From Promethearchaeia archaeon (GTDB lineage Archaea > Asgardarchaeota > Lokiarchaeia > Sigyniarchaeales > SOKP01): a DNA stretch of 32,000 nucleotides. Made by a program: the position numbers and the translations under genes. Of the stretch, positions 505-27,367 are shown in pieces. The stretch is taken from NCBI GenBank assembly GCA_046497275.1, contig JAWOFX010000186.1, positions 7,273 through 39,272 on the forward strand, written 5' to 3'. How positions within the stretch are numbered: position 1 is the stretch's first letter; each line of letters starts with the position of its first letter. Below the pieces are notes generated by a model. It did not search any database, was not told the DNA's origin, and was given only the letters and a program-made list of their open reading frames with translations.

Positions 505-2610
505 TTATGCCCCCTCTATTGTTTTATTTGCATTTAAAAAATCAAGAGTTAATTTTTGTCCGTTATATTCTATTATGGTTTGCATACTCCCAAATGTCTG
601 ATTGCAGTATGGACTTTCAAATCGCTCATATGGTCCTAGATCGATTATTTGATCCTCCACCTTCATTTCCCCATCCCAACTTACCCGAATTTTTCCTTTA
701 GAGGGGGAATTGTAAATGATTTCATACCCTATAGATTTTTTTGAGATTCCAATATTTGCATTCAGAATTTTGGCTATAAAATCTTCATAGGAATCGAAAG
801 CATCATCATCAACACTTCCTAATTCAACTATCCATGCATTTTTCTTTCCTTCCGCTCTTAGTTCATAATTGCTTTTCCACTCTGTTGGGTTATTTGAATA
901 TAAAGCTACGAAGCTGTCATTTCGCCGTCCAAATACCCAATTGTTTGATTTATTCCATTCATTAAAAGCCCAACGTGGGAAATATGCGTGTGTATATGAT
1001 TTCTCTCCTAAAAATTCTTGAACTAATTCTAATATAAGCGATTGAGCGCGTCGGTCATATTGGATAATACCCACATTTTCATATAAAGTCGCACGGGGTT
1101 TCCAACCACTCGTGAATTTTTGATCACTAGCACTAAGGGCACTTGGAGAGCTAGTAAATATAGTAGCATTTCCGTCCAAGCAAGCTTGCCAGATAAGTTC
1201 TTGAAGACCATTCATTCCTTTTTGATGATCCTGGACCCCAGACAATTGGTAATAGGGAGTTTTATATGTATAGGTGTTAGCAGTCTCGAGGGACACACCC
1301 TGAGTGATATCCTTTATTATATGACTAAAATCTTTCAGAGAAGTTCCATAAATAGTGGCTCCAATATCAAATAAATCAACAAAAGCTTCATCGTTAAATA
1401 TCAATGCGGGATCTAACTCATAAGTATTCATAATTCTTAAAGAAGATTCTAATACTGGAGGAGCTGCAGGAGCAGACATTGGCCACCAAAACATAAGATC
1501 TGATTCGGTTTCATATCCAAATCCATAATTAGGACCCTCTGAGATATCTATATTATTCCTTGATTTATGAATATGGGTATTTGTATTTGCGGTCGCATTT
1601 GCTATATCTTCTAATATTTTAGGAGTGAAATAATTCCCTGTTGCCATAAATACGGCAGCCCCGTTTTCTCCAGTAGTTATATCATCTGATCCAATACCAA
1701 GCATCAACCAAGCTGGTTCTGCAGTTGACTCTTTTTCGGGAGGATTAGATGCGGAAGTACCTACTTGTTTTTCATCCTCAGTTCTTCCGTGGGCAGTGGC
1801 ATAAAAACCTTTATAATAATTATTTGCAAAATCAAATCCGATTAAATCAATTAGCATTTCTGCTTTTTTTTGAATGGTAGTATTCTGAGCGAAATCCACC
1901 AAATTTAATAAAGCAGTTAAATCAAGGCGATAATAAATATTTGAATGCCACTCTGCAAACCCAAACTTAGCTCTCCAATCAAGCCAACGGTTCACTAAAG
2001 GAAGAGCATGTTCGATATGTTGGGATCCATTCCATCCTGAATTAGGAAATATGGTATTAGGAAATAATTGACCAGCTAATAATTCCGCCGTATGGAATAA
2101 GATCATATGATTTTCAGTCCAAAAGATCATCTCATCTGGACCTGATTCTGTAAACCAATACTTAAAATTTAAAATGGCATCTTTTATGCTATCATTCAAG
2201 CCAGAGGGGATATTATATTTGCCAAGATCTAAATACATCATTCTTAGTAATGTATTCATATCAAAATCCGAACAATCTTCTCTGATATTGATTTTATCGA
2301 GGGATTGGTTGATCCTTGCTTCATTATATTCTGTCTCATTCAGATATACTTTGGCACATTGAGCATTAAATCCATCGCTATTATTTGCTAAATCCAAATA
2401 CATATCTTTACGTTCCGTAAAATTTAAATCAGAGAGATAATACGAGGATGGATTCGCAAAATCATCAAGATCAGTATTTATCTCCCCTTCTTTAATTATA
2501 CCAGACGGTTTTGGAATCAAAGTAGGTATAAATATTATAATTGGCATAAGCACTAATATTACTGCGATAATAAGAAGTTGAATGTATTTTTTCATCTTTT
2601 TTAACACCAA
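505..2610 (-). CDS. Membrane-anchored/secreted protein (~700 aa), possibly heparinase II/III- or alginate-lyase-like fold; likely start ATG 2595
   Basis: Long ORF with N-terminal MKKYIQLLIIAVILVLMPIIIFIP anchor and motifs FWTENH, GFAEWHSNIYY, HGRTE, YQLS. Helical N-half and beta-rich C-half. The fold call is from pattern recognition only. Confidence 0.6.
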   Translation of the reverse strand: MVLKKMKKYIQLLIIAVILVLMPIIIFIPTLIPKPSGIIKEGEINTDLDDFANPSSYYLSDLNFTERKDMYLDLANNSDGFNAQCAKVYLNETEYNEARINQSLDKINIREDCSDFDMNTLLRMMYLDLGKYNIPSGLNDSIKDAILNFKYWFTESGPDEMIFWTENHMILFHTAELLAGQLFPNTIFPNSGWNGSQHIEHALPLVNRWLDWRAKFGFAEWHSNIYYRLDLTALLNLVDFAQNTTIQKKAEMLIDLIGFDFANNYYKGFYATAHGRTEDEKQVGTSASNPPEKESTAEPAWLMLGIGSDDITTGENGAAVFMATGNYFTPKILEDIANATANTNTHIHKSRNNIDISEGPNYGFGYETESDLMFWWPMSAPAAPPVLESSLRIMNTYELDPALIFNDEAFVDLFDIGATIYGTSLKDFSHIIKDITQGVSLETANTYTYKTPYYQLSGVQDHQKGMNGLQELIWQACLDGNATIFTSSPSALSASDQKFTSGWKPRATLYENVGIIQYDRRAQSLILELVQEFLGEKSYTHAYFPRWAFNEWNKSNNWVFGRRNDSFVALYSNNPTEWKSNYELRAEGKKNAWIVELGSVDDDAFDSYEDFIAKILNANIGISKKSIGYEIIYNSPSKGKIRVSWDGEMKVEDQIIDLGPYERFESPYCNQTFGSMQTIIEYNGQKLTLDFLNANKTIEGA

Positions 2611-2871: not shown

Positions 2872-4020
2872 CTACGTTTTCTCTAATTCCATCTCTCTAA
2901 TTGCCTTACCACTTCTAAATGGGGTATCTTCAACCGATTCTCCTGCGCGATACTTAAATTCCTTTTGAAACTGCTCATTTAGAGACTGAAAAATTAGCGA
3001 AAGTGGTATATTCATAGGACAATTATTCGCACAATTTCCACATTCTACACATCGATCAGCAACATGGGCAATGCGCGTTAACTGATAACTTACATTATCA
3101 ATATTTTTTTCCTTCCGCTTTTTCTGAAGGATACAATCGACGCAATAACATACTGGACAGCCCCTAATACACATTCCGCACATAGTGCATTTCTGAAGCT
3201 GTTCCAGTTTTTCCTTTTGAGATAATTTATTCCATTCTTCGAGATCCTTCGCTCGTTTTTCTTCTGCAGTCTTAAGAATCTCAGCCATTTTGTCTTCATG
3301 TGCTTTTTTAATATCACTTGGTAGTTTTTCAGCCTTAATTCCTGATTTATCGATTAATTCGCCTGCAGCATCACTATGAACTTTTAAGATAATATTTTCA
3401 TCTTCAATAGGAATTCCAATATCACTAATAGAAATGTCTGCGATTATAGGTTGCTTTCGAATACATCTCGAGCAATTATCAGCAATTTCGATTCCTACTT
3501 GTTTTGTCTTTCCATCATCAAGTAAAAATAATAATCCATCATCCGTGATTTTCTCCTTTACGATTTTTGTGGTATCAAGATCCTTCTCGCTTCGAAGTTC
3601 CCGTGAGACATTTAATGTCATTCCGCGATCTTCAATTCCAATGATAAATAAGTTATCTAAATTCACTTGTTTTATTTTGCTCAATTCTATTAATGCTCTT
3701 GTATCGCAAGGTCGAGCTATTAAAGCGATTTTCTCATTTTTCGCTCCATCTGCGCTTGCATGTAAGAATTTAGAGGCAGAATCCGTTCGGGCGTATCCAT
3801 AGGTAATTAAATTAGACACGGGAAAACTTTCAATCTCCTCGGGTTTTTCCCATAATTTTGGAGAGATTGAAAATCGATCTACTTCACCGGATTTTTTACT
3901 TACTTTTACTTCTGCGCCGATTATTTTATCAACCATTCCCTCTTTCAATAAGGTCTTTAACAATGTAGGGAAGTCTTTTTCTTTTATGAGATATTCTGCT
4001 TGTGTTTCCACAGCTTTCAA
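2872..4020 (-). CDS. FdhB-like F420-interacting iron-sulfur flavoprotein (FrhB/FdhB family with C-terminal 2x[4Fe-4S])
   Basis: Motifs IARPCDTRALIEL, CSRC, CTMCGMCIRGCPVCYCVDC and RCVECGNCANNCP are typical of methanogen FdhB. TTG start. Confidence 0.8.
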   Translation of the reverse strand: MKAVETQAEYLIKEKDFPTLLKTLLKEGMVDKIIGAEVKVSKKSGEVDRFSISPKLWEKPEEIESFPVSNLITYGYARTDSASKFLHASADGAKNEKIALIARPCDTRALIELSKIKQVNLDNLFIIGIEDRGMTLNVSRELRSEKDLDTTKIVKEKITDDGLLFLLDDGKTKQVGIEIADNCSRCIRKQPIIADISISDIGIPIEDENIILKVHSDAAGELIDKSGIKAEKLPSDIKKAHEDKMAEILKTAEEKRAKDLEEWNKLSQKEKLEQLQKCTMCGMCIRGCPVCYCVDCILQKKRKEKNIDNVSYQLTRIAHVADRCVECGNCANNCPMNIPLSLIFQSLNEQFQKEFKYRAGESVEDTPFRSGKAIREMELEKT

Positions 4021-4152: not shown

Positions 4153-4226
4153 ATGTGTTTAAATGGGGCTTCCATTTCTTCAACAAGATTCTCATTTTTT
4201 CAACCTTGTCTCATTAGGACACACAT
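4153..4226 (-). promoter_or_regulatory. SECIS element, eukaryote-like (kink-turn AUGA...GA core, apical A-run)
   Basis: Minus strand: AUGUGU-gucc-ua-AUGA-GACAAGGUU-gAAAAAAugag-AAUCUUGUU-GA-ag-AAAUGG-aagcc-CCAUUU-aa-ACACAU. GACAAGGUU pairs fully with AAUCUUGUU (two G-U). AA starts 10 nt after AUGA and a GA follows the 3' strand directly. AUGUGU/ACACAU closes the base. It starts about 6 nt after the vhuD stop. Confidence 0.85.
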
Positions 4227-4232
4227 TTAATT

Positions 4233-4652
4233 TTATGAGGAGCTTTCTTTTAAAGGATTTCCACCCAATCCTTTAATAGTATTATAGAATTCTGTGGCTA
4301 CTTCTTTAAACCTTGCGCCTTCAGCAGAACTGCAAAATTCCATTCTAAGTCTCTCAGGTGCGATTCCTGCTGAATTTAACACATCTTTTAGATATTCTAC
4401 GCTACGATACGCAAATTTATTTCCTGTCTCGTAATCACACTCTCCTGGATGTCAGCCGACGATTAATACCCCATCAGAACCCCTTCCGAATGCGCGCATA
4501 ACAAGATCTGCTCCAACTCGTCCGGTACATGGAACAATAATTATTCTATATGCTGTTGGATATTGGGCGCGAATTGTGCCTGCCATATCAGCTCCTCCGT
4601 ATCCTCATTTTCTACAACAAAATGCGATTATCTTAATTCCATTATTTGTCAT
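4233..4652 (-). CDS. vhuD: Selenocysteine-containing MvhD/VhuD-type [2Fe-2S] protein (139 aa, Sec16 and Sec67)
   Basis: Absent from ORF track. MTNNGIKIIAFCCRK(U)GYGGADMAGTIRAQYPTAYRIIIVPCTGRV...GVLIVG(U)HPGECDYETGN...RLRMEFCSSAEGARF...GGNPLKESSS*. TGA at 4605-4607 and 4452-4454 match Cys in the in-window paralog (FCCNWCSYAGAD; TGCHIGDCHY). TAA stop. GAGGT upstream of the ATG. Confidence 0.93.
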
Positions 4653-4665
4653 TTTATTTACCTCT

Positions 4666-6624
4666 TTACTCTGCAATAGGTAGTAATGCATCAATAAATG
4701 CATCATATTGATTATCTTTATAATGTGCTAATTCTATAGCTTTTGAAGGACACAAGGATTCACAAATTCCGCATCCTCTACAGCTAATGATATCCACTTC
4801 TATTAAGTTTTTTCCATTGATTGAAATCGCACCGTAAGGACATGCCTCAACACATTTATAACATTTCGCACATCGTTCATCATTTGGTTGAGCTCGAATT
4901 AGCTCTATTATGTATTCCTCGTTTTTCATCGGGATACTTGCTTCAGAGGCTGCTCCTTTTGCTTGACTTACCGTAAGGTCTATTGATTTTTGGGCTTGAC
5001 AAGAACCCGCAATATAGATTCCCGGAGTTTTTGTTGATATGGGATCTAATCGTGGATGTGCTTCTTTTAGAAAGCCATCCGGAGTCTTTTCCAAATTCAT
5101 CACTTTAGCAATTTCATCTGTACCTTTAGATGGAAGTGATGCTGAAGAGAGTATCACCATATCAAATTCTTTTTCAATGATTGTATCTGTTCCCACCGGT
5201 TCTAATTTAACTATGAGATTTTTTGTTTCGGGATCTTCTTGTATATCTCCCACCATTCCTTTTACAAATAATATGCCTTGATTTCGTGCCCGCCGATAAT
5301 ATTCTTCATACATCTTACCACCAGCACGAATATCTATATAGCATACCATTATCTCAGAATCGGGATACTCTGATTTGATAAGCTTGGAATTTTTTATCGA
5401 AAGATTGCAGCACACCACGCTACAATATTCATGTGTTTTTAAACTTCTCGATCCCACGCAATTAATGAAGAGTATCCTTTTAGGTCGTTCTCCATCAGAT
5501 GGTCGTTTTAAATGTCCTAGTGTTGGTCCGTTTGGTGCGATTATTCGTTCCAATTGTACTTGTGTTATAACGTTATCATATATTCCATACCCATAATCAT
5601 CTCCTTGGTAAAGATCCCAACCAGTTGCAATTATTATTGTTCCTACTTCTAACTCAACAATTTCATCTTGTTGACTAAAATCAATCGATTCATTATCACA
5701 AGCGTCTACACATGCAAAACATTCTACACATGAATCTCGTTCAATGTTAGAAATTGCAGGAACTGCTTGCGCAAATGCAATATCAATACATTTTCGAGCA
5801 GAAAGGTTCTCGTCAAAATAGTTTGGCACATATATAGGACATACATCAGTACAAGATCCGCACCCAGTTCAAAGTGTTTCATTAACATATCGCGCTTTGC
5901 GTTTTACTTTCACGTTAAAATTCCCAATATATCCATCTACATCTACAACTTCACTATATGATAAAATTTCGACGTTTTTATTACGCTCAACTTCTAGCAT
6001 TTTAGGTCCCAAGATTCAGATACTGCAATCATCAGTTGGAAATGTTCTATCAAGTTGAGCCATTCTTCCTCCTATGGTAGTCTCTTTCTCCACTAAGTAC
6101 ACTTTATATCCCTCATTTGCTAAATCTAGTGCAGCATTTATTCCCCCAATTCCACCACCGATTACTAGAGCCTCTGGTTTTACGGATACTTTTTTCGTTG
6201 GAATATCTTCTAATAACCTAGACCTTCCAATACCTGCTTTAACTAATTCAATTGCTTTCTCTGTTGCCTCCTCTCGTACATCGGGATCTTGATGAACATA
6301 AGAACATTGCTCTCTTATATTAACAAATTCAAGATGTCTTGGTGGCAAACCTGCTTCTTTCAAAATATCCATAAATACTGGTTCATGAGTAAGAGGAGTT
6401 CAAGCTGCTAAAACTATTCTATCAAAACCTTTTTCTGCGATCTGTTCTTTCATGAATTCTGCGCCACCAGACGTACACATGTTTAGATATTCGTATGCGT
6501 TTACATTCTCTTCTTTATCAATCTCTTCGACAATCTTCGGTACATCGAGTATTCCTGCCACGTTTACACCTCAGCGACAGATAAAAGCTCCTACGTTTTC
6601 CTTGGTCTGTTCATCATCAGACAT
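4666..6624 (-). CDS. hdrA: Selenocysteine-containing heterodisulfide reductase subunit A (652 aa, Sec18, 75, 203, 252)
   Basis: The ORF-track fragments 6016..6372 and 4666..5829 join in one frame from ATG 6624. TGA at 6571-6573 (FICR-U-GVNVAG), 6400-6402 (LAA-U-TPLTHEP), 6016-6018 (TDDCSI-U-ILGPK) and 5869-5871 (ETL-U-TGCGSCTDVCP), all at conserved Cys positions. FAD motif GGGIGG, CVGSR and CSVVCC, C-terminal ferredoxin domain. AGGAGGT at 6654-6648. Confidence 0.95.
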
Positions 6625-6906
6625 TTTTCTCACTCTTAGAAAGTAATACCTCCTAATATCTTGAGATTTACTTGTTTTTGATTTATAATTATTATTAGTA
6701 TTTATTTTAATTGGTAAAATTAAGATTTGTTCTTAAAATTTGTTCTTATCAAGAATCATTGAATTCTTTAAAATTATCGATATTTCATAATCATCAATCC
6801 AGTAAGATAAAGTCTGAATTTTTTGGCTTTATTTAACTTGAGGATCTTTTTCTGAATTTTTGATCTATTCCATATTTTTTTAATTTGACCTTTCCTATAA
6901 AGTATT

Positions 6907-8849: not shown

Positions 8850-9770
8850 ATGAATGAATCTAGACTACAGAATTCTAAAACCAGAGAAATAGAAAATAAT
8901 GACAATATTTATCGAGAAGAAAAATGTTGCGAAGATCCAAGGATTGAAAAGGTTCGTGGGGAGGAAGTATGTGTGAATTGTGGCACGGTACATCAAAGAG
9001 ATATTGTTGGATTAAAACAGAGAGCATTTACTTCTGAAGAGGTGGAGAAACGAAGAATAACTGAACCTCGCTGGAGACAATTTGGACCCAGAACTACGAT
9101 TCCTTCTGCTAAAAAAGAGGATAAAATGAGCCCTCAACAAAAATCCCTCTTTTCTCGTTTATCAAAAATTCAAAAATCCTTAATCTCAAGTATTGAGCGC
9201 AATTTCTGGGAAGCACGACCCAAACTTACCATGCTAACCTCAATGTTAAATATTCCTAAATATATAGAGGAAACTGCTTGGAAAATATATACTGAAGCAG
9301 CAAAAAAGAAATTGACTTTAGGAAGAACCATAGATGGATTTGTCGCGGCATCTTTATATGCTGCAATTAGAGTACATGAATATCCACGTATTCTTGATGA
9401 GATATGCGATGCACTTATGATTTCGCGACATAAAGTTATTAAATCACTTGGATTGATATTGAAAAAAATTTTACCTGAATTAGGGTTACGTTATCATCCA
9501 ATAACCCCAAAAAAACTAATTTATCGGTTTGGGAGTGAAGCTGAACTGTCATTAAAAACTCAGAAACAAGCATACAACTTACTTTCAACAACATTTCAAT
9601 CTGGATTACTGATAACTGGAAAGGATCCCCGTGGATTCGCTGCGGCAGCACTCTATATGGCAGCACAATCTGCTTCCGAACAAATTACTCAAAAAAAAAT
9701 GGCGGATATCGCTGGAATCACTGAAGTTACACTTAGAAATAGACTAAAAGATATGCGTAAACATTTATGA
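8850..9770 (+). CDS. tfb: Transcription initiation factor IIB (TFB) paralog
   Basis: Zn ribbon CC...CVNCG, TEPRW..GPRT linker, two cyclin folds (LGRTIDGFVAASLYAAIR; GKDPRGFAAAALY) and C-terminal GITEVTLRNR helix-turn-helix. Confidence 0.93.
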   Translation: MNESRLQNSKTREIENNDNIYREEKCCEDPRIEKVRGEEVCVNCGTVHQRDIVGLKQRAFTSEEVEKRRITEPRWRQFGPRTTIPSAKKEDKMSPQQKSLFSRLSKIQKSLISSIERNFWEARPKLTMLTSMLNIPKYIEETAWKIYTEAAKKKLTLGRTIDGFVAASLYAAIRVHEYPRILDEICDALMISRHKVIKSLGLILKKILPELGLRYHPITPKKLIYRFGSEAELSLKTQKQAYNLLSTTFQSGLLITGKDPRGFAAAALYMAAQSASEQITQKKMADIAGITEVTLRNRLKDMRKHL

Positions 9771-14227: not shown

Positions 14228-14791
14228 TTAGCTTTCATATTCTTCAAGTTGCTCGGAAAAGAGACGCTTAACTGCCTCAATCCTGGTTTCCTCTCCAATT
14301 TGTTCAACATTCTTGAGTGATATGGCTTCTTTTGGACACACAGCGATACATTGTGGCTCAGGCTCTCCTACTTCAGGATCTATGAACTCTTCTCGCATAT
14401 TTTCACATAAATCACACACAAGTGCTTTCTGTGTATTTATATTAAGTGAAATAACACCGAAATCGCATGCTCTTATACAGAATCCGCACCCATTGCATTT
14501 ATCCTCATCCACAATTATGCTTCCTGTGGCATCATCTTGCTCTAGTGCTTTTTCGGGGCAACTTCGAACACATGGTGAATCTTCACATTTTTGACACGCT
14601 AATGCGATATTGAACACCGGTTCGATACGTACTCTATGAATTCTAGTATTGATAGGGTTAAAAGTCCCTTCATGAACAAAAGAGCATACACTTTCACAAG
14701 TTTCGCAACCAGTACAGAGATCTGGATCAACCATTATGAATTGATGCATCCTTCCGCCTCTTTTTTTAGTCTTGGATCTTGCAGTAGCCAT
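14228..14791 (-). CDS. 4Fe-4S polyferredoxin (AOR-associated electron-transfer subunit)
   Basis: CTGCETCESVC, CQKCEDSPCVRSCP, CNGCGFCIRAC and CDLC...CIAVCP. Starts 3 nt after the AOR stop; the true start may be the internal MHQF ATG. Confidence 0.9.
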   Translation of the reverse strand: MATARSKTKKRGGRMHQFIMVDPDLCTGCETCESVCSFVHEGTFNPINTRIHRVRIEPVFNIALACQKCEDSPCVRSCPEKALEQDDATGSIIVDEDKCNGCGFCIRACDFGVISLNINTQKALVCDLCENMREEFIDPEVGEPEPQCIAVCPKEAISLKNVEQIGEETRIEAVKRLFSEQLEEYES

Positions 14792-14794
14792 TGG

Positions 14795-16741
14795 TTATTT
14801 TTTCCCCCCTTTTTTCTTTGGTGGTTCTAAATTTCCAATAACAAAATCCAAACCCAAACTTTTGAGAGTTTCTTCAGTAGGAATACCTGTTTCTGTATCC
14901 CATCCTCGAGCTTCATAATACCCACTCAATAATTTTTGATATCCTTTTTCCTCTAGGGTTACTCCTTTAGCAGGTCCTTTAGTATGTGCTTCTTTGAAGA
15001 ATCGCTCAGGAGGATGGTCATCTGCTCTTGTCCATCCTTCACGGATATTAAAGCACTTCGATAAGGTTACTATTGCATTTCCTCGTTCTTTCATAGAATC
15101 TCCAGTATGAGGGATGCCAGTTACTAATTCATAGACTTTCGCCATCTCATCATCATCCTCATAGACTCCACGAGTGAATTTACAAATAATATAGGAATCA
15201 ATAACGGCATAGATATCCTCTACATCAATTATTGCGTTTCCTCGTTCAACGGGTTTATCATAGGCAAACCTATCAAACTTTCCTTTAGCATCAAGTCCAT
15301 AAGCTCCATTTCGTAAGTGGCACGCTCCGCGAATTGAAACACTCTCTCCCACGGCAAAAGAAGTCATGCCATGAAGATCGAATGCAGGCATTTCCAATCC
15401 TTTAATATTCATTGCATGAAAACTAGCATTTTCGCGTCCCATTTCTTCTAAACGTTTTCCTGCCATTAAAGTTCCATCACCAAAAACTTCCCCAGCAAAA
15501 CCCTCTCCTCGTATCATCTCTTCGGTAAATCGGACTAGATTTTTTGTAGAGCCAAATGGTAATTCATATCCCAAGTCTTTTTTAGTGATAATTCCCTCTT
15601 CAAATAAATCACACGCCATAGCCGCAGTAACGCCACCTGATATTCCATCAATGCCTAAATCATCACATAATTCAATACATTTAAACACAGTAGGCCAATC
15701 AGCATTACCACAAGCTGTACCAAAAGAATATAAAAGTTCTATATCTGTACTTGCAACTAAATTTGGATAATCAGGATGGTTTTTTGATACTCTTGCTAAA
15801 TGATCGCAAGCAACGGAGCATTGAGAACATGCTACTTTCTTTACGACCCAATCTTCATTAAGAGTTTCTCCTGTATACTCACCATTCGTTATTTTTTCCC
15901 AAGTGCCCTCCTTATAATTATACGTGGGCATCATTCCAAGTTTATTATAACTCGTAAGTCCAGCTGGGGTTCCTAAATCTCGATATTTCGAAGTTGCAGG
16001 TCCGTTAGCAACTTTAATTAGTTTTTTAGCTAATTGATAAAATTCTTTAGGTTTTGCTACAGAAATAGGTTTCGTGCCTCTAAAGGCAATAGCTTTTAGG
16101 TTTTTGGAGCCCATTACCGTTCCCATACCAGTTCTACCCGCCTGACGATTTCGATCATTAGTGATACATCCCAATCGACTCATCCTCTCTCCACCGGGAC
16201 CGATTGCCATCACAGCTAATCTTTGATCTTGAAATTCTTCTCTTAGTATTTCTTCTGTATCCCAACATCCCTTGCCCCACAATAAATCTTCGCACGACAT
16301 GCTATATCTATCATCATCATCCACAACAAATACAACCGGTTCTGGTGCTTTACCCTTAAAAACTATCATATTAACACCAGCACGTCTTGCTTGGGCACCA
16401 ACTGATCCCGAGGAAATAGACATACCGAACATATTTGTTAGAGGTGATTTTGCAAACACACCATATTTTGAACTTGTTGGTAAAATGGTTCCCGGAAATG
16501 GACCTATTGCCCAAACGAAAATATTATCAGGACTTAAAGGATCAATACCTGGTTCTAATTCATCCCATAATACTTTTGCTCCAAAACCATAACCACCTAT
16601 CCAGTTTGCGAGAAAATCATTTGATAATTTAGTTTCTGTTATCTTTCCCGTAGTTAAGTCGACATCGAGTCTTGTCTGCGTGTAACCCTTTACTTCATCT
16701 GGAATTGTTAAATTTTTTGCTTCGGTCATTTCTATATTCAC
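14795..16741 (-). CDS. aor: Tungsten-dependent aldehyde:ferredoxin oxidoreductase family protein
   Basis: IGGYGFG, KSPLT, IGPGGE, AGRTGMGTVMGSKNLKAI, CSQCSVAC, CDDLGIDGIS, GACH, CKF and YYEARGWD..TGIP motifs. Confidence 0.93.
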   Translation of the reverse strand: MNIEMTEAKNLTIPDEVKGYTQTRLDVDLTTGKITETKLSNDFLANWIGGYGFGAKVLWDELEPGIDPLSPDNIFVWAIGPFPGTILPTSSKYGVFAKSPLTNMFGMSISSGSVGAQARRAGVNMIVFKGKAPEPVVFVVDDDDRYSMSCEDLLWGKGCWDTEEILREEFQDQRLAVMAIGPGGERMSRLGCITNDRNRQAGRTGMGTVMGSKNLKAIAFRGTKPISVAKPKEFYQLAKKLIKVANGPATSKYRDLGTPAGLTSYNKLGMMPTYNYKEGTWEKITNGEYTGETLNEDWVVKKVACSQCSVACDHLARVSKNHPDYPNLVASTDIELLYSFGTACGNADWPTVFKCIELCDDLGIDGISGGVTAAMACDLFEEGIITKKDLGYELPFGSTKNLVRFTEEMIRGEGFAGEVFGDGTLMAGKRLEEMGRENASFHAMNIKGLEMPAFDLHGMTSFAVGESVSIRGACHLRNGAYGLDAKGKFDRFAYDKPVERGNAIIDVEDIYAVIDSYIICKFTRGVYEDDDEMAKVYELVTGIPHTGDSMKERGNAIVTLSKCFNIREGWTRADDHPPERFFKEAHTKGPAKGVTLEEKGYQKLLSGYYEARGWDTETGIPTEETLKSLGLDFVIGNLEPPKKKGGKK

Positions 16742-18962: not shown

Positions 18963-20072
18963 TTATTTTGATTTTCTAGAAATCATTTTCCTGAAGAAAT
19001 TCTTTCTTTTTTCTCTCCAATCAGTCTCTTTATCTCTGGGAGGGATATATTGATCAATATATTTTTGTGATAATAAAGTCTCTATCAATTTTTGCCCTGG
19101 TTCCGTTCTGGTAATAATTATCGAATAATTTTCCGGTGCACCTGTGGATCCTACACTTATATCAGAAAATCTACCAGCAAAATCATCACAGACTTTGCAA
19201 TGGGATCTTACAGCAGGGTCTAAATTCTTAATATTAACTTCTAAGGTATCACCTTTCTCACTTTCAACAAAAAAGTTCTTCTTTATATATGTTTTTTTAA
19301 TATCTGAAGGTTTTATTCCTTTATCCTTCCTTATTAACTCATAAAGCGTGGAATACTCAAAGTTTTCAAAACAGAATAAACTGATAATATATTTGACAAC
19401 ATGAGCAGGTTTTATACTGAGCAATTTCATTTTCCTTAAGGCTTTTACTTGACAAGGCGTTCCTACAAAAGCCACACGGATTTGGTCAATGTCATAAATA
19501 CCTTTTTCTTTTTGAATTTGTAAGGGAATATTGTACAAGTCTTTTAATGGTAAAACTTGACTAGATATAGAATATCGTGTTCCGGCAGATTTTAAGAGTT
19601 CCTCTTTGTCAAATATTAATTTTGGTTTTGGGTGAAGTTCCTCATCATATTCAGAAACAACAGCAGCATCGATTTTATTTTTCTCGAATAGATAAGATAA
19701 GATAGTAGTAACTATTCCTCCATCTTGTCCAACCTTATTTATTGCTTCTCTTGTTGTTTTTGCAGCGATTATATCAATTATATGCCCTAATTCATCTTGT
19801 ATTTCAAGATTTTCGACTAATAATTCCTCCAACGTGTCTGTTTGAGGACAAATATAATAACAAAGTCCACATTCTGTGCAATTATCTTCATTTTTTTTTG
19901 ATTTGAATTTAGGAATATATTCATCTAACTTAATCACATCAAAGCTTTGGCTTTCACAATAAGCTACACATGCCCCACATGCGCAACATAAATCTTTTTG
20001 AATTACTTCCTTATCTAAATCTTTAAATGTTTTTACTTCCTCTTGCTCACTATTAGATAATGATTCTGTCAT
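18963..20072 (-). CDS. FrhB/FpoF-family F420-dependent oxidoreductase subunit with N-terminal ferredoxin
   Basis: CCACGACVAYC and CTECGLCYYICP, GQDGGIVT, AGTRYS, AFVGTPCQ, SLFCFENF and CKVCDDF...SDISVG. Confidence 0.88.
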   Translation of the reverse strand: MTESLSNSEQEEVKTFKDLDKEVIQKDLCCACGACVAYCESQSFDVIKLDEYIPKFKSKKNEDNCTECGLCYYICPQTDTLEELLVENLEIQDELGHIIDIIAAKTTREAINKVGQDGGIVTTILSYLFEKNKIDAAVVSEYDEELHPKPKLIFDKEELLKSAGTRYSISSQVLPLKDLYNIPLQIQKEKGIYDIDQIRVAFVGTPCQVKALRKMKLLSIKPAHVVKYIISLFCFENFEYSTLYELIRKDKGIKPSDIKKTYIKKNFFVESEKGDTLEVNIKNLDPAVRSHCKVCDDFAGRFSDISVGSTGAPENYSIIITRTEPGQKLIETLLSQKYIDQYIPPRDKETDWREKRKNFFRKMISRKSK

Positions 20073-20081
20073 TTTTTATCC

Positions 20082-20546
20082 TTATTCCTTTTTTAGTTCA
20101 ATCTTTCCAAATTTTTTGGGAAAAGATGAGGGACCTAAATTTGAAATAATCTCATTAAATTCCCGTATTAATTCAGCAAATTGTTTTCCTTCACTAGCTG
20201 AAATCCATTCTAATCGAAATCTATTAGGATTAATTCCTATTTTTTTCAATAAAGTTTTCATATGATTCATTCTTTCTCTTGCTAATTCATTACCACTAAT
20301 ATAATGGCAATCACCGATATGACATCCTGTAACTAAAACACCATCTATACCATTTTTAAATGCAGTTAAAATAAATGAGGGTTCTACCCTTCCTGAACAC
20401 ATCACTCGTACTATTCTGATACTTGGAGGATATTGAAATCTTGAAACTCCCGCTAAGTCTGCTCCGGCATAAGAACACCAGTTACAGCAGAAAACTAAAA
20501 TTTCTGGAAGAAAGGCTTCTTTCTCTTTAATTTTTGTTTTACTCAT
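20082..20546 (-). CDS. mvhD: MvhD [2Fe-2S] protein, all-Cys form
   Basis: FCCNWCSYAGADLAG, VMCSGRV, GCHIGDCHY and WISASEG. Confidence 0.95.
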   Translation of the reverse strand: MSKTKIKEKEAFLPEILVFCCNWCSYAGADLAGVSRFQYPPSIRIVRVMCSGRVEPSFILTAFKNGIDGVLVTGCHIGDCHYISGNELARERMNHMKTLLKKIGINPNRFRLEWISASEGKQFAELIREFNEIISNLGPSSFPKKFGKIELKKE

Positions 20547-20575
20547 TATTAATTTAATCCCTCAAATATTGGATA

Positions 20576-23500
20576 TTATTCTAAATTAATGCCTGGTAAT
20601 AATTCAATCTGTTTTCTAATCTGAAAATTACTGAAATGTCTCTGATTAATAGCCCCTAATGGACATTCAGCCGCACATGCCCCGCATCCTTTACAGAGTG
20701 CTTTAATTACATGTGCTTTTTTCTCATTGACAGTATAAAGACCAATCTGTTTAGTAATTTCTAACATTTCTATCGCATTGTAAGGACATATCTCTGCACA
20801 TGCACCACATCCTATACATTTCTCCTCATTCACATAACAAGTTATCCCCTCCGTCTCGACTTCTCCTTTAACCATTAAAGAAGCGGCTCTCCCGGCAGCT
20901 CCATATGCTTGTGTTATTGCTTCATCTATCCATTTTGGCCAGTGTGCTCCGCCACATAAGAAAATCCCATCAGTTGCAAAATCAACTGGACGAAGTTTAA
21001 CATGAGCCTCCAAAAAGAATCCATCTTTAGTGGTAGGGACTTTAAGCATTTTAGCGAGTTCATTAGTTCCCCTCCCCGGAATTTCAGGGGTTGCAAGAAC
21101 TAATAGGTCTGTATCATATTCAACTTCACAATTCGCACCAAGATTATTATAATTTATGTGAAATGCTCCATTATTCTCTGAAATCGTTATTTCTTTGATG
21201 GATTTATATCTTTCAAAAGAAACTTTTTTCCTTAAATCACGCCATAATCGCTCAGCATTCAAGTCAGAAAATTGTAATTCTCTATATAGAATATGGATAT
21301 GTGCTTCTGGATTGATATCCAAGAGTTTTTCAATATTTTTAAGCGCTACTTTACAACAAATATTACTACAATAGGTTTTTATAGTCTCACCTTGATTAAA
21401 TTCATTCCGTCTTTGATCCACACATAATATAATTGTAGCATCATTAAAACCTGGTACTTTTGTATCTTGCGTAGCTTCTAATTCATTTTGAGTGAAAACT
21501 TTATTTGGATGCTTTTTAATAGCATCTTTCCATCTATCTGTATCTGATTGACTAGTTCCCGTAGCCACAATGATAGTTCCAACTATGAAATCAAAAGTGT
21601 CTGATTCATTTTGGACATTTTGGGTTTTAATTTCATAATTTCCTACGTATCCGGTTATATCTGTGATTATAGAGCTCGTTAATAAATGAACATTTGATTT
21701 TGTCTTTAAATCATTAATATCCTTCAAAATATCTTGTTTATGCATAGGAATATCATATAAATCAATGAATTCTAAAGAATTCCCTCCTAAACTTGGCTTT
21801 TTCTCAACAAGATATAATTCAAATCCTTGATTAGCAAGATTATGAGCTGCCACTATACCAGCAATTCCGCCACCTATTATCATAGCTGATTTTTCAACCT
21901 TAACTTTGATTTTTTCAAGAGGTTGAAGATTAACGACTTTAGCCAAATACATTCTGATTAAGTCGCAAGCTTTTTTAGTCGCTTTTTCAGGCTCATTATG
22001 GTGTACCCAAGAATCTTGATCTCTAATATTAACCAATTCAAATAAAAATGGATTTAATCCAGCTTCTTTTAAAGTATTTCTAAATAATGGTTCATGAGTT
22101 CTTGGAGTACATGATGCTACCATAAATCTATTTAATTTATATTCTTTAATCATTTCCTTGATTCTCTCTTGAGAATCCGAACTGCATGAATACATATTTT
22201 CTTCGGCATGTGTTACATAAGGAAGCTTAGAAACATAATCAACCACCGCTGAAGTATCAACAACCCCCGCGATATTTATTCCACATTGGCATACAAGAAC
22301 ACCTACTCTTGGTTCATCATCTATACCTACAGGAATTTCTGGGGGATAAACAACCTCTTTTATATTATTAAATCTAACGGGATTGAGTTTTTCACTTATT
22401 TTGGCGGCGCAAGCACTTCCCTCAGCAACCGCTACAGGTATATCTTTTGGTTTCCTTGAATAACCAGTAAAAAATATGTTATTTTCTTCTGATTTAATCA
22501 ATCCCTCTTCATTAATAAAACCAAATTCATTATAGTCAACATTAATGCAATCTAATAAATCATAATAAGAATCATTTGGAAATAAAGCACTTGCTAATAC
22601 AACCATATCATATTCATCATTTTCAACTTTATTTTTATCAATATCTTCATAAAATAAAGTCAATTTACCATTTTGCGGATTCTCCTTAACCAAGGAAACT
22701 CTACCATTAACATAATTTACTCCGTATTCCTCTTTACTTTTTACTATAAATTCATAAAAATTCTTACCTTTTGCTCTTATCTCTGTATTGAATATAGCAC
22801 ATTCAGTATCTGGAGCATGTTCTTTAGCCACGATTGCTTGTTTAGCAGAGGACATACAACAAATTGAAGAACAATATTTTTTACAATCTGGATGATGGAA
22901 ATCTCGCGATCCAACACATTGTAGAAAAGCAATCTTATGAGGATGTTTTTTATCATCGAAACATATTAATTCTCCACCTGTTGGCCCATTAGCAGATAAT
23001 AATCTTTCAAATTGCATACTTGAAAGAACATTTGGATTTGAACCCGCCAGTAGAGAATAAAACTCTGGGTACTGCTGTTCATAACCAGTGGCTATAACGA
23101 TCGCTCCAACATTTATATCAATTTCTTTGGGTTTTTGAGTGAAATCAATCGCGTCTGCTTTACACCCTGTAGCACATAGTTTACAAATTCCATGATTCAA
23201 ATAAAGACATTTGTTTTCATCAATTAAATAGATTGGAGGAACTGAAGAGGGAAATGAGATATGAGCAGCACTACGAGTAGTTAAGTGAGCATCAAATTCA
23301 CTTGGAATTCCTTTTACGGGACAAATTGTAGCACAATCTCCACAACCCTTACATTTTGTCTCATCAACATACCTTGGTTTTCGAATTACTTTCACATTAT
23401 AATTTCCAGCCGTTCCATTAATTTTTTCTACATGTGAATAGGTTAGTAGCTCAATATTAGGATTTCTATATACTTCCACCATTTTTGGAGCTAAAATACA

Positions 23501-23677
23501 CAAAGAACAATCTAACGTAGGAAATGTCTTATCTAATTGTGCCATTGTACCTCCAATTGTAGGCTTTTTTTCTACTAAGTATACTTTAAACCCTAATTCA
23601 GTTAGATCTAAAGAAGTTTGGATACCCGCTATACCAGCACCTATCACTAGAACGGAACTTGATAATGCTTCTGTCAT
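20576..23677 (-). CDS. hdrA: Long, domain-rearranged HdrA-like flavoprotein (1033 aa), all-Cys form
   Basis: Order: FAD module 1 (GAGIAG, TLDCSLC, ferredoxin insert, QCVGSR, CSSICC); HdrA N-terminal-type domain (VCQCG, SCS, ASCTP); FAD module 2 (GGGIAG, CSNICC); C-terminal ferredoxin. Confidence 0.9.
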   Translation of the reverse strand: MTEALSSSVLVIGAGIAGIQTSLDLTELGFKVYLVEKKPTIGGTMAQLDKTFPTLDCSLCILAPKMVEVYRNPNIELLTYSHVEKINGTAGNYNVKVIRKPRYVDETKCKGCGDCATICPVKGIPSEFDAHLTTRSAAHISFPSSVPPIYLIDENKCLYLNHGICKLCATGCKADAIDFTQKPKEIDINVGAIVIATGYEQQYPEFYSLLAGSNPNVLSSMQFERLLSANGPTGGELICFDDKKHPHKIAFLQCVGSRDFHHPDCKKYCSSICCMSSAKQAIVAKEHAPDTECAIFNTEIRAKGKNFYEFIVKSKEEYGVNYVNGRVSLVKENPQNGKLTLFYEDIDKNKVENDEYDMVVLASALFPNDSYYDLLDCINVDYNEFGFINEEGLIKSEENNIFFTGYSRKPKDIPVAVAEGSACAAKISEKLNPVRFNNIKEVVYPPEIPVGIDDEPRVGVLVCQCGINIAGVVDTSAVVDYVSKLPYVTHAEENMYSCSSDSQERIKEMIKEYKLNRFMVASCTPRTHEPLFRNTLKEAGLNPFLFELVNIRDQDSWVHHNEPEKATKKACDLIRMYLAKVVNLQPLEKIKVKVEKSAMIIGGGIAGIVAAHNLANQGFELYLVEKKPSLGGNSLEFIDLYDIPMHKQDILKDINDLKTKSNVHLLTSSIITDITGYVGNYEIKTQNVQNESDTFDFIVGTIIVATGTSQSDTDRWKDAIKKHPNKVFTQNELEATQDTKVPGFNDATIILCVDQRRNEFNQGETIKTYCSNICCKVALKNIEKLLDINPEAHIHILYRELQFSDLNAERLWRDLRKKVSFERYKSIKEITISENNGAFHINYNNLGANCEVEYDTDLLVLATPEIPGRGTNELAKMLKVPTTKDGFFLEAHVKLRPVDFATDGIFLCGGAHWPKWIDEAITQAYGAAGRAASLMVKGEVETEGITCYVNEEKCIGCGACAEICPYNAIEMLEITKQIGLYTVNEKKAHVIKALCKGCGACAAECPLGAINQRHFSNFQIRKQIELLPGINLE

Positions 23678-25414: not shown

Positions 25415-27367
25415 ATGGAAGAAAAGAAAATTGTCTGTGCAAGAGATTGTTATGATGCGTGTAGTATGATTATAGAAACCGATAAAAAAGGCAATTTGAT
25501 TTCGATTAGAGGTGACTCAGATCATCCAATCACAAGAGGTGTGTTATGTCCTCGAGGAGTAAAAGATATTGAACATGTATATAAAAATCGAATCTTATAT
25601 CCTCACAAGTTCGATAATTCGATGAGAGATTATGAAAGATTCTCATGGGAAGAAGCCCTTAATAAAATATCGGTAAAACTTATAGAATGTTTGGAAAAGT
25701 ATGATTCAGATTCAATATTACATATAGATTTCGCGGGAAATGGTGGTATTTTAACATGGGATTATCCTTTAAGATTTTGGAATTTTATAGGGGCTGCCCA
25801 AACTGATTATTCAATTTGTACTAAATCTGGGCATAAAGCAATCTCACTTCACTATGGAAAAAGCTATGGAATCCAACCAGAAAACCTTTTAAACCAAAAA
25901 TTAATAGTATTTTGGGGGTTTAATGCTTCAGAGAGTGCTCCTCATCTATGGAATTTATGTCTTAAAGCTAGAAAGAAAAATAATACCTTATTAGTTACAA
26001 TCGATCCAAGAAAATCCGAGACAGCAAAACAATCTGATTTATGGATAAATCCTTTTCCAGGGACTGATACTTATTTAGCGCTTGGCATATCCAAATATTT
26101 AATTGATAATGAATATATAAATAAGGAATTCATTAAGAAATGGACATTTGGATTTGATAAATATAAATTATTAGTGGATAGTATTGAATATAATGAAGTT
26201 GAAGAGATTTGCCACATAAACAAGAAAACATTAAGAGACGTATCAGGACTTTACGCTAAATTTAGACCGAATGCTTCTTTGATCGGGATAGGACTATCGA
26301 AAAGTAGATATGGAGCGAATTCAGTCCGAACTATATCACTTATTCCTGCATTGTTAGGAATTCATCGTGGATTTTTCTTTAGCAATGATCAAGCGTACTT
26401 TATTAATAAAGATTATTTGAGATTGGAAGATCTAAATAAAGATCGGAAGATCATAAGTCAGGTAAATATTGCTGAAGATCTTGAAAAAAATAATATTAAG
26501 TTTATCTATATTTTCAATTCGAATCCCTCAGCCAGTTTACCAAATCAAAAAAAATTTAGAGCATTCTTGAAAAGAAAGGATGTATTTGTTGTGGTTCATG
26601 ATAGTCATTGGTCCTCGATATGTAATTTCGCAGATATCGTGCTTCCAGCTCCAACCTTTTTTGAAAAAGAAGATATAATAATTCCTTGGAGTCATTCATA
26701 TATTCGATATAATCCTAAAATAATAAACCCATTGGGAGAAAGCAAGAGTGAAATGTGGGTTTTTAAGAAAATATCAGAGAAATTAGATATAAAAAAGGGT
26801 GGATTATGGGAAGATCCCTTGCAAGTTGGCAAAAAATTTCTAGAATATTCCTTAGAAAAGGGTTCATTTGAAGATCTAATAAACGATAACCTATTAAAAT
26901 TGAAAACGAGGAAAATTAATAAATATTATACACCATCGAAAAAGATCGAGTTCTATTCTACTGTTGCCAAGAAAATGGGGATTGCCCCATTACCTAACAC
27001 TGATCATCCAACAGTTGATTCTGATGAATTTATTTTGTTGACCAGTTCACTTAAAAACTATACCCATTCACAATTTCAAGAAATTTATGGTGAAATACCT
27101 CCAATTTTAAAATTGAATATTGAAGATGCTCAAGAATTAGGGATTGAGGATGATATGAAGGTAGAAATCTATAATTCATTTGGTTCTATAAAATTAAAAT
27201 CACAAATGCCAGATCAAATGAAAAAAGGAGTCTTATGGGCTCCCAAATTAGTAATTGGATTAGATGGAAATCCTGTTAATATTTTGACGTCTAACATTCC
27301 CCAAAAAATAGGAGGCGGTTCTTCCTTTAATTCAACAAAAGTTCGAATTAGGAAAATTTCTTCATAA
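25415..27367 (+). CDS. Molybdopterin-dependent oxidoreductase (DMSO reductase superfamily, uncharacterised subgroup)
   Basis: CARDCYDAC...HPITRGVLCPRG [4Fe-4S] motif, FWGFN, IDPRKSETA, ADIVLPAPTFFEKED and a C-terminal molydopterin dinucleotide-binding domain. No in-frame TGA. Confidence 0.9.
   Translation: MEEKKIVCARDCYDACSMIIETDKKGNLISIRGDSDHPITRGVLCPRGVKDIEHVYKNRILYPHKFDNSMRDYERFSWEEALNKISVKLIECLEKYDSDSILHIDFAGNGGILTWDYPLRFWNFIGAAQTDYSICTKSGHKAISLHYGKSYGIQPENLLNQKLIVFWGFNASESAPHLWNLCLKARKKNNTLLVTIDPRKSETAKQSDLWINPFPGTDTYLALGISKYLIDNEYINKEFIKKWTFGFDKYKLLVDSIEYNEVEEICHINKKTLRDVSGLYAKFRPNASLIGIGLSKSRYGANSVRTISLIPALLGIHRGFFFSNDQAYFINKDYLRLEDLNKDRKIISQVNIAEDLEKNNIKFIYIFNSNPSASLPNQKKFRAFLKRKDVFVVVHDSHWSSICNFADIVLPAPTFFEKEDIIIPWSHSYIRYNPKIINPLGESKSEMWVFKKISEKLDIKKGGLWEDPLQVGKKFLEYSLEKGSFEDLINDNLLKLKTRKINKYYTPSKKIEFYSTVAKKMGIAPLPNTDHPTVDSDEFILLTSSLKNYTHSQFQEIYGEIPPILKLNIEDAQELGIEDDMKVEIYNSFGSIKLKSQMPDQMKKGVLWAPKLVIGLDGNPVNILTSNIPQKIGGGSSFNSTKVRIRKISS

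Follow-up and report, generated by a model that had tools for sequence, protein, structure and literature searches.

We analysed a 32,000-nucleotide (nt) stretch of the genome of a Promethearchaeia archaeon (GenBank assembly GCA_046497275.1, contig JAWOFX010000186.1, positions 7,273 to 39,272; hereafter the window), in which an hdrA-like gene with four in-frame TGA codons lies on the minus strand at 4666..6624. The gene has 652 codons, an ATG start and a TAA stop. Thirteen bases 3' of its stop begins vhuD/mvhD (4233..4652, minus strand; 139 codons), which has its own Shine-Dalgarno-like AGAGG, a TAA stop and two TGA codons, codon 16 (4605-4607) and codon 67 (4452-4454). Behind vhuD on the same strand lie a selenocysteine insertion sequence of the Loki type (lokiSECIS; 4180..4214) and a gene for a FrhB/FdhB-like iron-sulfur protein (2872..4020).

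We translated the frame from 6624 to 4666 with TGA read as selenocysteine (Sec, U) and obtained 652 residues without an in-frame TAA or TAG, so that TGA at codons 18, 75, 203 and 252 is its only interruption, as an earlier note on this DNA had claimed. Translation with table 11 gave fragments only, such as 4666..5829 (387 aa) and 6016..6372 (118 aa), which agrees with the note's description of a gene hidden as open reading frame (ORF) fragments. BLASTP against the paralogue in the window that has cysteine (Cys) throughout (23677..20576, minus strand) reproduced the four pairings that the note had drawn, with a Cys opposite each TGA (ICR-U-G/VCQCG, AA-U-TP/ASCTP, DCSI-U/DCSLC and ETL-U-TGC/ETKCKGC). 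Codon 18 (6571..6573) corresponds to Cys13 of the solved HdrA of Methanothermococcus thermolithotrophicus (5ODC) and lies in the MvhD-like N-terminal domain with its [4Fe-4S] cluster; codon 75 (6400..6402) corresponds to Cys71 and lies in the same domain. Codon 203 (6016..6018) is the canonical HdrA Sec site, equivalent to Cys197 of 5ODC and Sec197 of Methanococcus maripaludis; it is the second residue of the CxxC/U pair beside the flavin adenine dinucleotide (FAD), with Cys200 as its partner. Codon 252 (5869..5871), equivalent to Cys246 of 5ODC, stands at the leading Cys of the first CxxCxxCxxxCP motif in the inserted ferredoxin domain. All four codons are given on the minus strand.

The product matched 5ODC chain A over nearly its whole length (residues 9-641 against 4-643, E = 1.9e-205), and four further HdrA structures were matched, 9SFI, 8RVU and 7BKB among them. 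A chance frame is excluded because 652 codons of AT-rich sequence run without TAA or TAG and match a solved HdrA from end to end at this E value. Pfam domains in the product were of the FAD/Rossmann type (Pyr_redox_2, FAD_oxidored) together with several Fer4 families, and the best NCBIfam families were HdrA2, then HdrA. Both scores lay below the equivalog cut-offs of these families, which represent methanogen HdrA (753 bits against 1100 for HdrA2; 630 bits against 1400 for HdrA). We therefore call the product an HdrA-family bifurcating flavoprotein, for which the coenzyme B-coenzyme M (CoB-CoM) heterodisulfide is not to be assumed as substrate. The alignment with its relatives contained 26 Cys/Sec positions that were kept as Cys or Sec, with three cells as the exceptions: 16, 18, 50 and 75 in the N-terminal domain, the CxxC/U pair 200 and 203, the cluster of the thioredoxin reductase (TrxR) domain at 389, 401, 405 and 406, and four ferredoxin motifs. 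Each hdrA TGA sits on an invariant Cys column of this alignment. We conclude that hdrA at 4666..6624 is a genuine, intact four-Sec HdrA-type gene. No hdrB or hdrC (CCG-domain) gene lies beside it, and of 43 CCG-domain matches genome-wide none falls on its contig, C124.

The product of 4233..4652 belongs to PF02662 (E = 1e-45), and its best NCBIfam family is VhuD. HdrA's N-terminal domain aligned weakly with VhuD (E = 0.003); in this alignment Sec18 pairs with Sec16 and Sec75 with Sec67, so that two homologous folds carry Sec at the same two positions.

We next describe the lokiSECIS, in which AUGA precedes a perfect stem of 9 bp with an A-rich apical loop of 11 nt (GAAAAAAUGAG), and GA follows the stem. 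It begins 18 nt past the stop of vhuD and is separated from the last UGA by 240 nt and from the first by 2359 nt; the six UGAs span 2.1 kb of the two-gene unit hdrA-vhuD, with one conserved SECIS behind. At 4214..4180 it was the sole perfect pattern match on the minus strand of the window. It was also the top match in the genome of SECIS model R1 among the candidates scored (55.4 bits); this search scored 150 of ~13,500 first-look candidates, gave 4 matches and is no census of selenoprotein genes. Rfam at gathering thresholds matched nothing in the window, including any lokiSECIS family. The SECIS pattern was found 440-510 nt past hdrA in 108 of 127 related loci. The 19 loci that this simple pattern misses, two paralogues of the same genome (on contigs C171 and C24) among them, mark the limit of the pattern and are not evidence of absence. 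Across 61 distinct sequences, 9 of 9 stem pairs had changed on both sides (covariation score 0.89, compared to 0.25 after shuffling and 0.14-0.19 in slid registers), and the SECIS alignment (A1) showed no variation in ATGA, in AAA of the loop or in the 3' A of GA. Because the set was chosen by a pattern that requires pairing, independent evidence comes from the covariation and the fixed position and not from the percentage of paired positions.

We searched the genome, which is 98.9% complete, for genes of the Sec machinery. A tRNA-Sec(UCA) was detected with the Rfam covariance model (49.4 bits, cut-off 47). Its anticodon loop reads CUUCAAA, its acceptor stem has 9 bp, and its T-psi-C loop contains an insertion of 30 nt; a 31-nt intron has been reported for the Loki tRNA-Sec (PMC4989117). 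ARAGORN called no tRNA in either of the two loci that hold this sequence (L001 and L002), owing to the 30-nt insertion. The two loci are contig ends (L001:11-129 and L002:63-181; contigs C33 and C165), one with SepSecS and the other with the EFSec candidate, and the contigs probably join there since they share the same tRNA-Sec. SepSecS, which adjoins tRNA-Sec, scored 486 bits against a cut-off of 225. SelD (C114:629-1420) scored 173 bits against a cut-off of 125 and has one in-frame TGA; being itself Sec-containing, it makes the Sec pathway dependent on its own selenoprotein, as reported for Loki. For the EFSec candidate, selB was the best family at 234-236 bits, compared to 131 bits for EF-1alpha, the next best. 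The PSTK candidate was covered over its full length at 173 bits. Thus the machinery that the earlier note had wanted to see elsewhere in the genome is present above cut-off for tRNA-Sec, SepSecS and SelD, whereas the EFSec/SelB and PSTK candidates are assigned to a clear best family at scores under the cut-offs.

These genes bear on whether TGA might be reassigned throughout the genome, for example to Trp, Gly or Cys, instead of being read as Sec at specific sites. Nothing favours reassignment but the in-frame TGAs themselves. We observed that TGA is the stop of 217 of 1555 long ORFs (14%), including the TFB-like gene at 8850..9770, in a genome of 30% G+C where TAA is the commonest stop; TGA is therefore an ordinary stop here. 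In addition, in-frame TGAs occur only at Cys columns of known selenoprotein families, and a dedicated tRNA-Sec and SECIS are present. Stop-codon usage refutes reassignment, to which we attach a negligible probability.

A normal TGA stop, together with a frame that breaks under table 11, is what would be seen if hdrA were a pseudogene, or an assembly or sequencing artefact, with its TGAs as true stops. To weigh this, we compared the window with an independently assembled 73-kb contig of the Joint Genome Institute (JGI) that represents a conspecific haplotype (L156, with hdrA at L156:1501-3459; 97.3% nt identity, 68 of 2601 bases different). All four hdrA TGAs and both vhuD TGAs were present in it, so the sites hold TGA rather than TGY in two assemblies. 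In hdrA we counted 55.5 synonymous and 7.5 nonsynonymous differences between the haplotypes (ratio of nonsynonymous to synonymous divergence, pN/pS, 0.037). The ratio was 0.017-0.076 in the four between-TGA segments with differences, while codons 1-17 had no differences; past codon 252 it was 0.017 (16 synonymous changes and 1 nonsynonymous change). The relaxed selection that the earlier note had named as a sign against function is thus not seen, either in the whole gene or past its last TGA. Further, all of the interrupting stops are TGA and each falls on an invariant Cys column, a SECIS and the Sec machinery are present, and the same arrangement occurs in more than 100 related loci. These data effectively refute the pseudogene or artefact explanation, which we regard as highly improbable. 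The machinery, the TGAs kept in an independent assembly and the purifying selection make it very likely that hdrA is a functional selenoprotein gene, in support of the note's proposal of a functional four-Sec HdrA.

Synonymous divergence (pS) was uneven between the two haplotypes: 0.20-0.35 in codons 19-251 (0.35 in codons 204-251), falling to 0.06 in codons 253-652 and to 0.02 in vhuD. Such a pattern suggests mosaicism by recombination, with all four Sec codons inside the divergent block. We also found a contig from an RNA library (run X2, from another study) that is identical to the window over 6138-6607 and covers codons 18 and 75. Run X1 gave two short, divergent pieces only. The sequence occurs in samples from salt lakes and sediments (runs X1-X16). 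Both runs are contig sets, in which a part without cover is not evidence.

To place the four sites among homologues, we drew HdrA loci from 40 related genomes, from GTDB species representatives of the Promethearchaeota, which is the current name of the Loki group, and from JGI metagenome contigs. This gave a set of 126 distinct homologues. Sec was present at site 203 in 121 of the 123 that cover it and at site 18 in 108 of 117. Site 75 was Sec in 48 and Cys in 70, and site 50 was Sec in 8 of the 126. At site 252 we observed Cys in 122 of 123 other homologues, Sec being found only in the conspecific haplotype L156; the four species of the same genus with an orthologue have Cys there. On the orthologue tree (80 sequences), Cys/Sec switches numbered at least 8 at site 75 and one at site 252. 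Other sets of four Sec were {18, 50, 75, 203} in three proteins, {18, 75, 203, 302} in two and {18, 75, 203, 618} in one, and one protein had the five-Sec set {18, 203, 405, 406, 621}. Sec occurred sporadically in relatives at other cluster-ligand Cys positions, namely 302, 305, 309, 405/406, 595, 618 and 621.

The earlier note had asked whether this exact four-site set is new. Its core {18, 75, 203} is common, whereas site 252, and hence the exact set, is confined to this one species among the 126 homologues. The Sec positions described for Loki HdrA in 2016 lie outside the cluster motifs except for one in the last [4Fe-4S] motif, and 252 is therefore not among them. The novelty is modest: it is the codon-252 Sec site alone, relative to the 2016 description and the 126 homologues, the site list of the 2024 catalogue not having been compared. 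Multi-Sec HdrA with two-Sec VhuD has been a published phenomenon since 2016, and this gene is a further example of it.

Two sets of paralogues are recorded here as side observations. The HdrA paralogue of a relative (L061, G021:C12:40469-42388) has five in-frame TGAs, two of them adjacent at the CC (405, 406) of the TrxR-domain cluster motif and another at 621; the tandem UGA-UGA decoding that it would need would be unusual. The source genome itself holds four more full-length HdrA paralogues, at C109:18802-20718, C171:5213-7171, C24:1961-3910 and C44:114063-116000, with 3, 3, 2 and 0 TGAs, respectively. Among these, a SECIS match (model R1 plus pattern) was found only at the C109 copy; for those on C171 and C24 a variant SECIS is possible.

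Our preferred explanation, to which we assign a probability of about 0.88, is that an intact Loki-type hdrA is expressed from a bicistronic hdrA-vhuD mRNA in which all six UGAs are recoded as Sec by one lokiSECIS. The frame, the Cys/Sec alignment, the SECIS with its covariation, the machinery genes, the conservation of the TGAs and the purifying selection are what we observed; from these we infer the steps that follow. The gene would be co-transcribed with the two-Sec vhuD/mvhD, and the single, eukaryote-like lokiSECIS past vhuD would recode all six UGAs, as was proposed in 2016, with tRNA-Sec(UCA), PSTK, SepSecS, SelD and EFSec supplied from elsewhere in the genome. The product would be a flavin-based electron-bifurcating subunit with an N-terminal MvhD-like [4Fe-4S] domain, a thioredoxin-reductase-like FAD domain, and inserted and C-terminal ferredoxin domains. 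Sec18 and Sec75 probably stand in for two of the four Cys that are invariant in the N-terminal cluster, treated in recent cryo-electron microscopy (cryo-EM) work as a mobile "shuttle" cluster (PMC13580544, PMC13518236). Sec203 would be the Sec of the canonical Cys-x-x-Sec redox pair beside the FAD. In the inserted ferredoxin domain, Sec252 may be a selenolate ligand of one [4Fe-4S] cluster along the low-potential path to ferredoxin.

Several points weigh against this explanation. The evidence for Sec decoding of hdrA is at the level of sequence rather than protein, and the roles of the putative Fe-S ligands are read from alignment rather than from its own structure. For EFSec and PSTK, the candidates stay under the curated cut-offs (242 and 290, respectively) of models built on bacterial and methanogen sequences. 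RNA evidence is weak, as the contigs of the metatranscriptomic library X2 cover only 6138-6700 (codons 1-160) and DNA carry-over is possible. The literature is divided on the role of Cys197: it has been described as a ligand of the partner's N-terminal cluster (PMC9012536), as part of a redox pair whose Sec197 form acts in a selenylsulfide relay (PMC13518236), and as a binder of an unknown ligand (PMC13580544). Finally, Sec252 is private to one species, and a tolerated or only partly decoded UGA is possible at that site.

This last point can be put as an explanation in its own right, in which UGAs 18, 75 and 203 are decoded while UGA-252 is a recent neutral or slightly deleterious mutation, inefficiently decoded into part truncated and part Sec product, without an adaptive role and rescued by the operon-wide SECIS. 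Consistent with it, Sec252 occurs in 1 of 123 other homologues, from the same species, and the nearest same-genus relatives carry Cys. The single-lineage Sec at ferredoxin-motif Cys positions 302, 305, 309, 595, 618 and 621 likewise resembles drift under a permissive SECIS. However, TGA-252 is common to two haplotypes whose surrounding block differs at ~7% of its bases (pS 0.35 for codons 204-251) and is thus not brand new, and the 400 codons past it are very strongly constrained, with 16 synonymous changes to a single nonsynonymous one. We regard this as the main rival explanation for site 252, though as less likely than not.

Under the preferred explanation of six recoded UGAs, a distance-acting SECIS that serves every in-frame UGA of the operon would allow a single TGY-to-TGA mutation to turn any Cys into Sec. 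This would explain both the flicker of Sec sites among lineages and the private fourth site here. We tentatively suggest, at somewhat less than even odds, that insertion of Sec at 252 is efficient and that its selenolate ligates a ferredoxin-type [4Fe-4S] cluster of the low-potential output branch of HdrA. Together with the sporadic sites of relatives and the switches at site 75 (at least 8), this would amount to a natural "selenocysteine scan" of Fe-S ligands in Loki-type archaea, made possible by the operon-wide SECIS.

Several consequences follow for annotation and for further study. hdrA, the two-Sec vhuD and the SECIS should be annotated as one selenoprotein operon, not as fragments or a pseudogene. 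The survey quantifies which HdrA Cys positions are replaced by Sec in Loki-type archaea: 203 and 18 almost always, 75 by repeated gain or loss, with sporadic replacement elsewhere. One species is also found to carry Sec at a classical ligand position of a ferredoxin motif. If Sec252 is truly decoded, it offers the biophysics of electron bifurcation a natural Se-for-S swap at a [4Fe-4S] cluster; if the "selenocysteine scan" holds, relatives offer a ready-made series of Se-ligated clusters for studies of redox tuning in electron bifurcation. What is known of Sec decoding in Asgard archaea as such is unchanged by the four-Sec hdrA.

We also assessed the neighbouring genes. The FrhB/FdhB-like protein at 2872..4020 (382 aa) has an FrhB_FdhB_C match of 32 bits and a 2x[4Fe-4S] domain. 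We found a homologue in 95 related loci by tblastn, downstream of hdrA-vhuD among the matches listed, and it is the probable third subunit of the hdrA-vhuD module. An ORF of 701 aa with an N-terminal hydrophobic segment lies at 505-2610 (minus strand) and matched no Pfam family at E 0.001 or better. The all-Cys paralogous module occupies 23677..18963 (minus strand) and consists of a fused double HdrA (23677..20576, 1033 aa), an MvhD (20546..20082) and a protein that is clearly FrhB/FdhB (20072..18963). The first unit of the fused HdrA opens with the FAD domain and carries the DCSLC pair, an MvhD-like domain lies mid-chain, and the second FAD unit is without a CxxC pair. An aldehyde:ferredoxin oxidoreductase (648 aa) with an adjoining polyferredoxin (187 aa) lies at 14228-16741 (minus strand), and a molybdopterin oxidoreductase (650 aa), separate from it, at 25415-27367 (plus strand); the two oxidoreductases are further low-potential redox enzymes near both HdrA modules.

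We compared the locus with known systems, beginning with the all-Cys module of the same window. It has the same three gene types, its HdrA shares 39% identity with the Sec HdrA, and it has Cys at every Sec position. In contrast to the Sec hdrA, it contains no TGA and joins two HdrA units in one 1033-aa chain with a permuted domain order. The layout of the fused HdrA, with the CxxC pair in the first unit and not in the second, resembles the complementary "heterodimer in one chain" pattern of HdrA from anaerobic methanotrophic archaea (ANME; PMC9012536). The pair of all-Cys and Sec HdrA modules parallels the Sec/Cys isoform pairs known in Methanococcus.

The Methanococcales HdrA is similar in domain architecture, in all cofactor Cys positions and in the Sec at the canonical DCSxU site, which the earlier note had cited correctly and which has been seen by cryo-EM as Sec197 in M. 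maripaludis (PMC13518236); a vhuD with two Sec is adjacent in both. The present system differs in having four Sec instead of one, a eukaryote-like rather than a euryarchaeal SECIS and a host that is no methanogen, and in having no adjacent hdrBC or vhuAGU genes among the ORFs of the contig and window.

The closest likeness is to the tandems of Mariotti et al. (2016), which bear out the earlier note's statement on multi-Sec selenoproteins in Lokiarchaeota and in which Loki HdrA has up to four Sec and stands in tandem with VhuD, with one SECIS for up to six UGAs (PMC4989117). The catalogue of Asgard selenoproteins was extended to 1439 in 2024 (PMC11227280). As in the 2016 tandems, we observed hdrA, a very short spacer and vhuD with a single SECIS behind vhuD only; a SECIS with AUGA ahead of a 9-bp stem, an A-rich loop of 11 nt and a closing GA; as many as four Sec codons in hdrA plus two in vhuD, with six UGAs over ~2 kb; and an hdrA stop that is not UGA (TAA here, as Mariotti's model predicts). 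The tRNA-Sec with its ~30-nt insertion in the T-psi-C loop and the EFSec gene on the tRNA-Sec contig are also shared. The 2016 study listed five possible Sec positions in Loki HdrA, of which a single one, in the last [4Fe-4S] motif, falls within a classical cluster motif (PMC4989117), whereas the fourth Sec described here, at codon 252, takes the place of the leading Cys in the first motif of the inserted ferredoxin domain.

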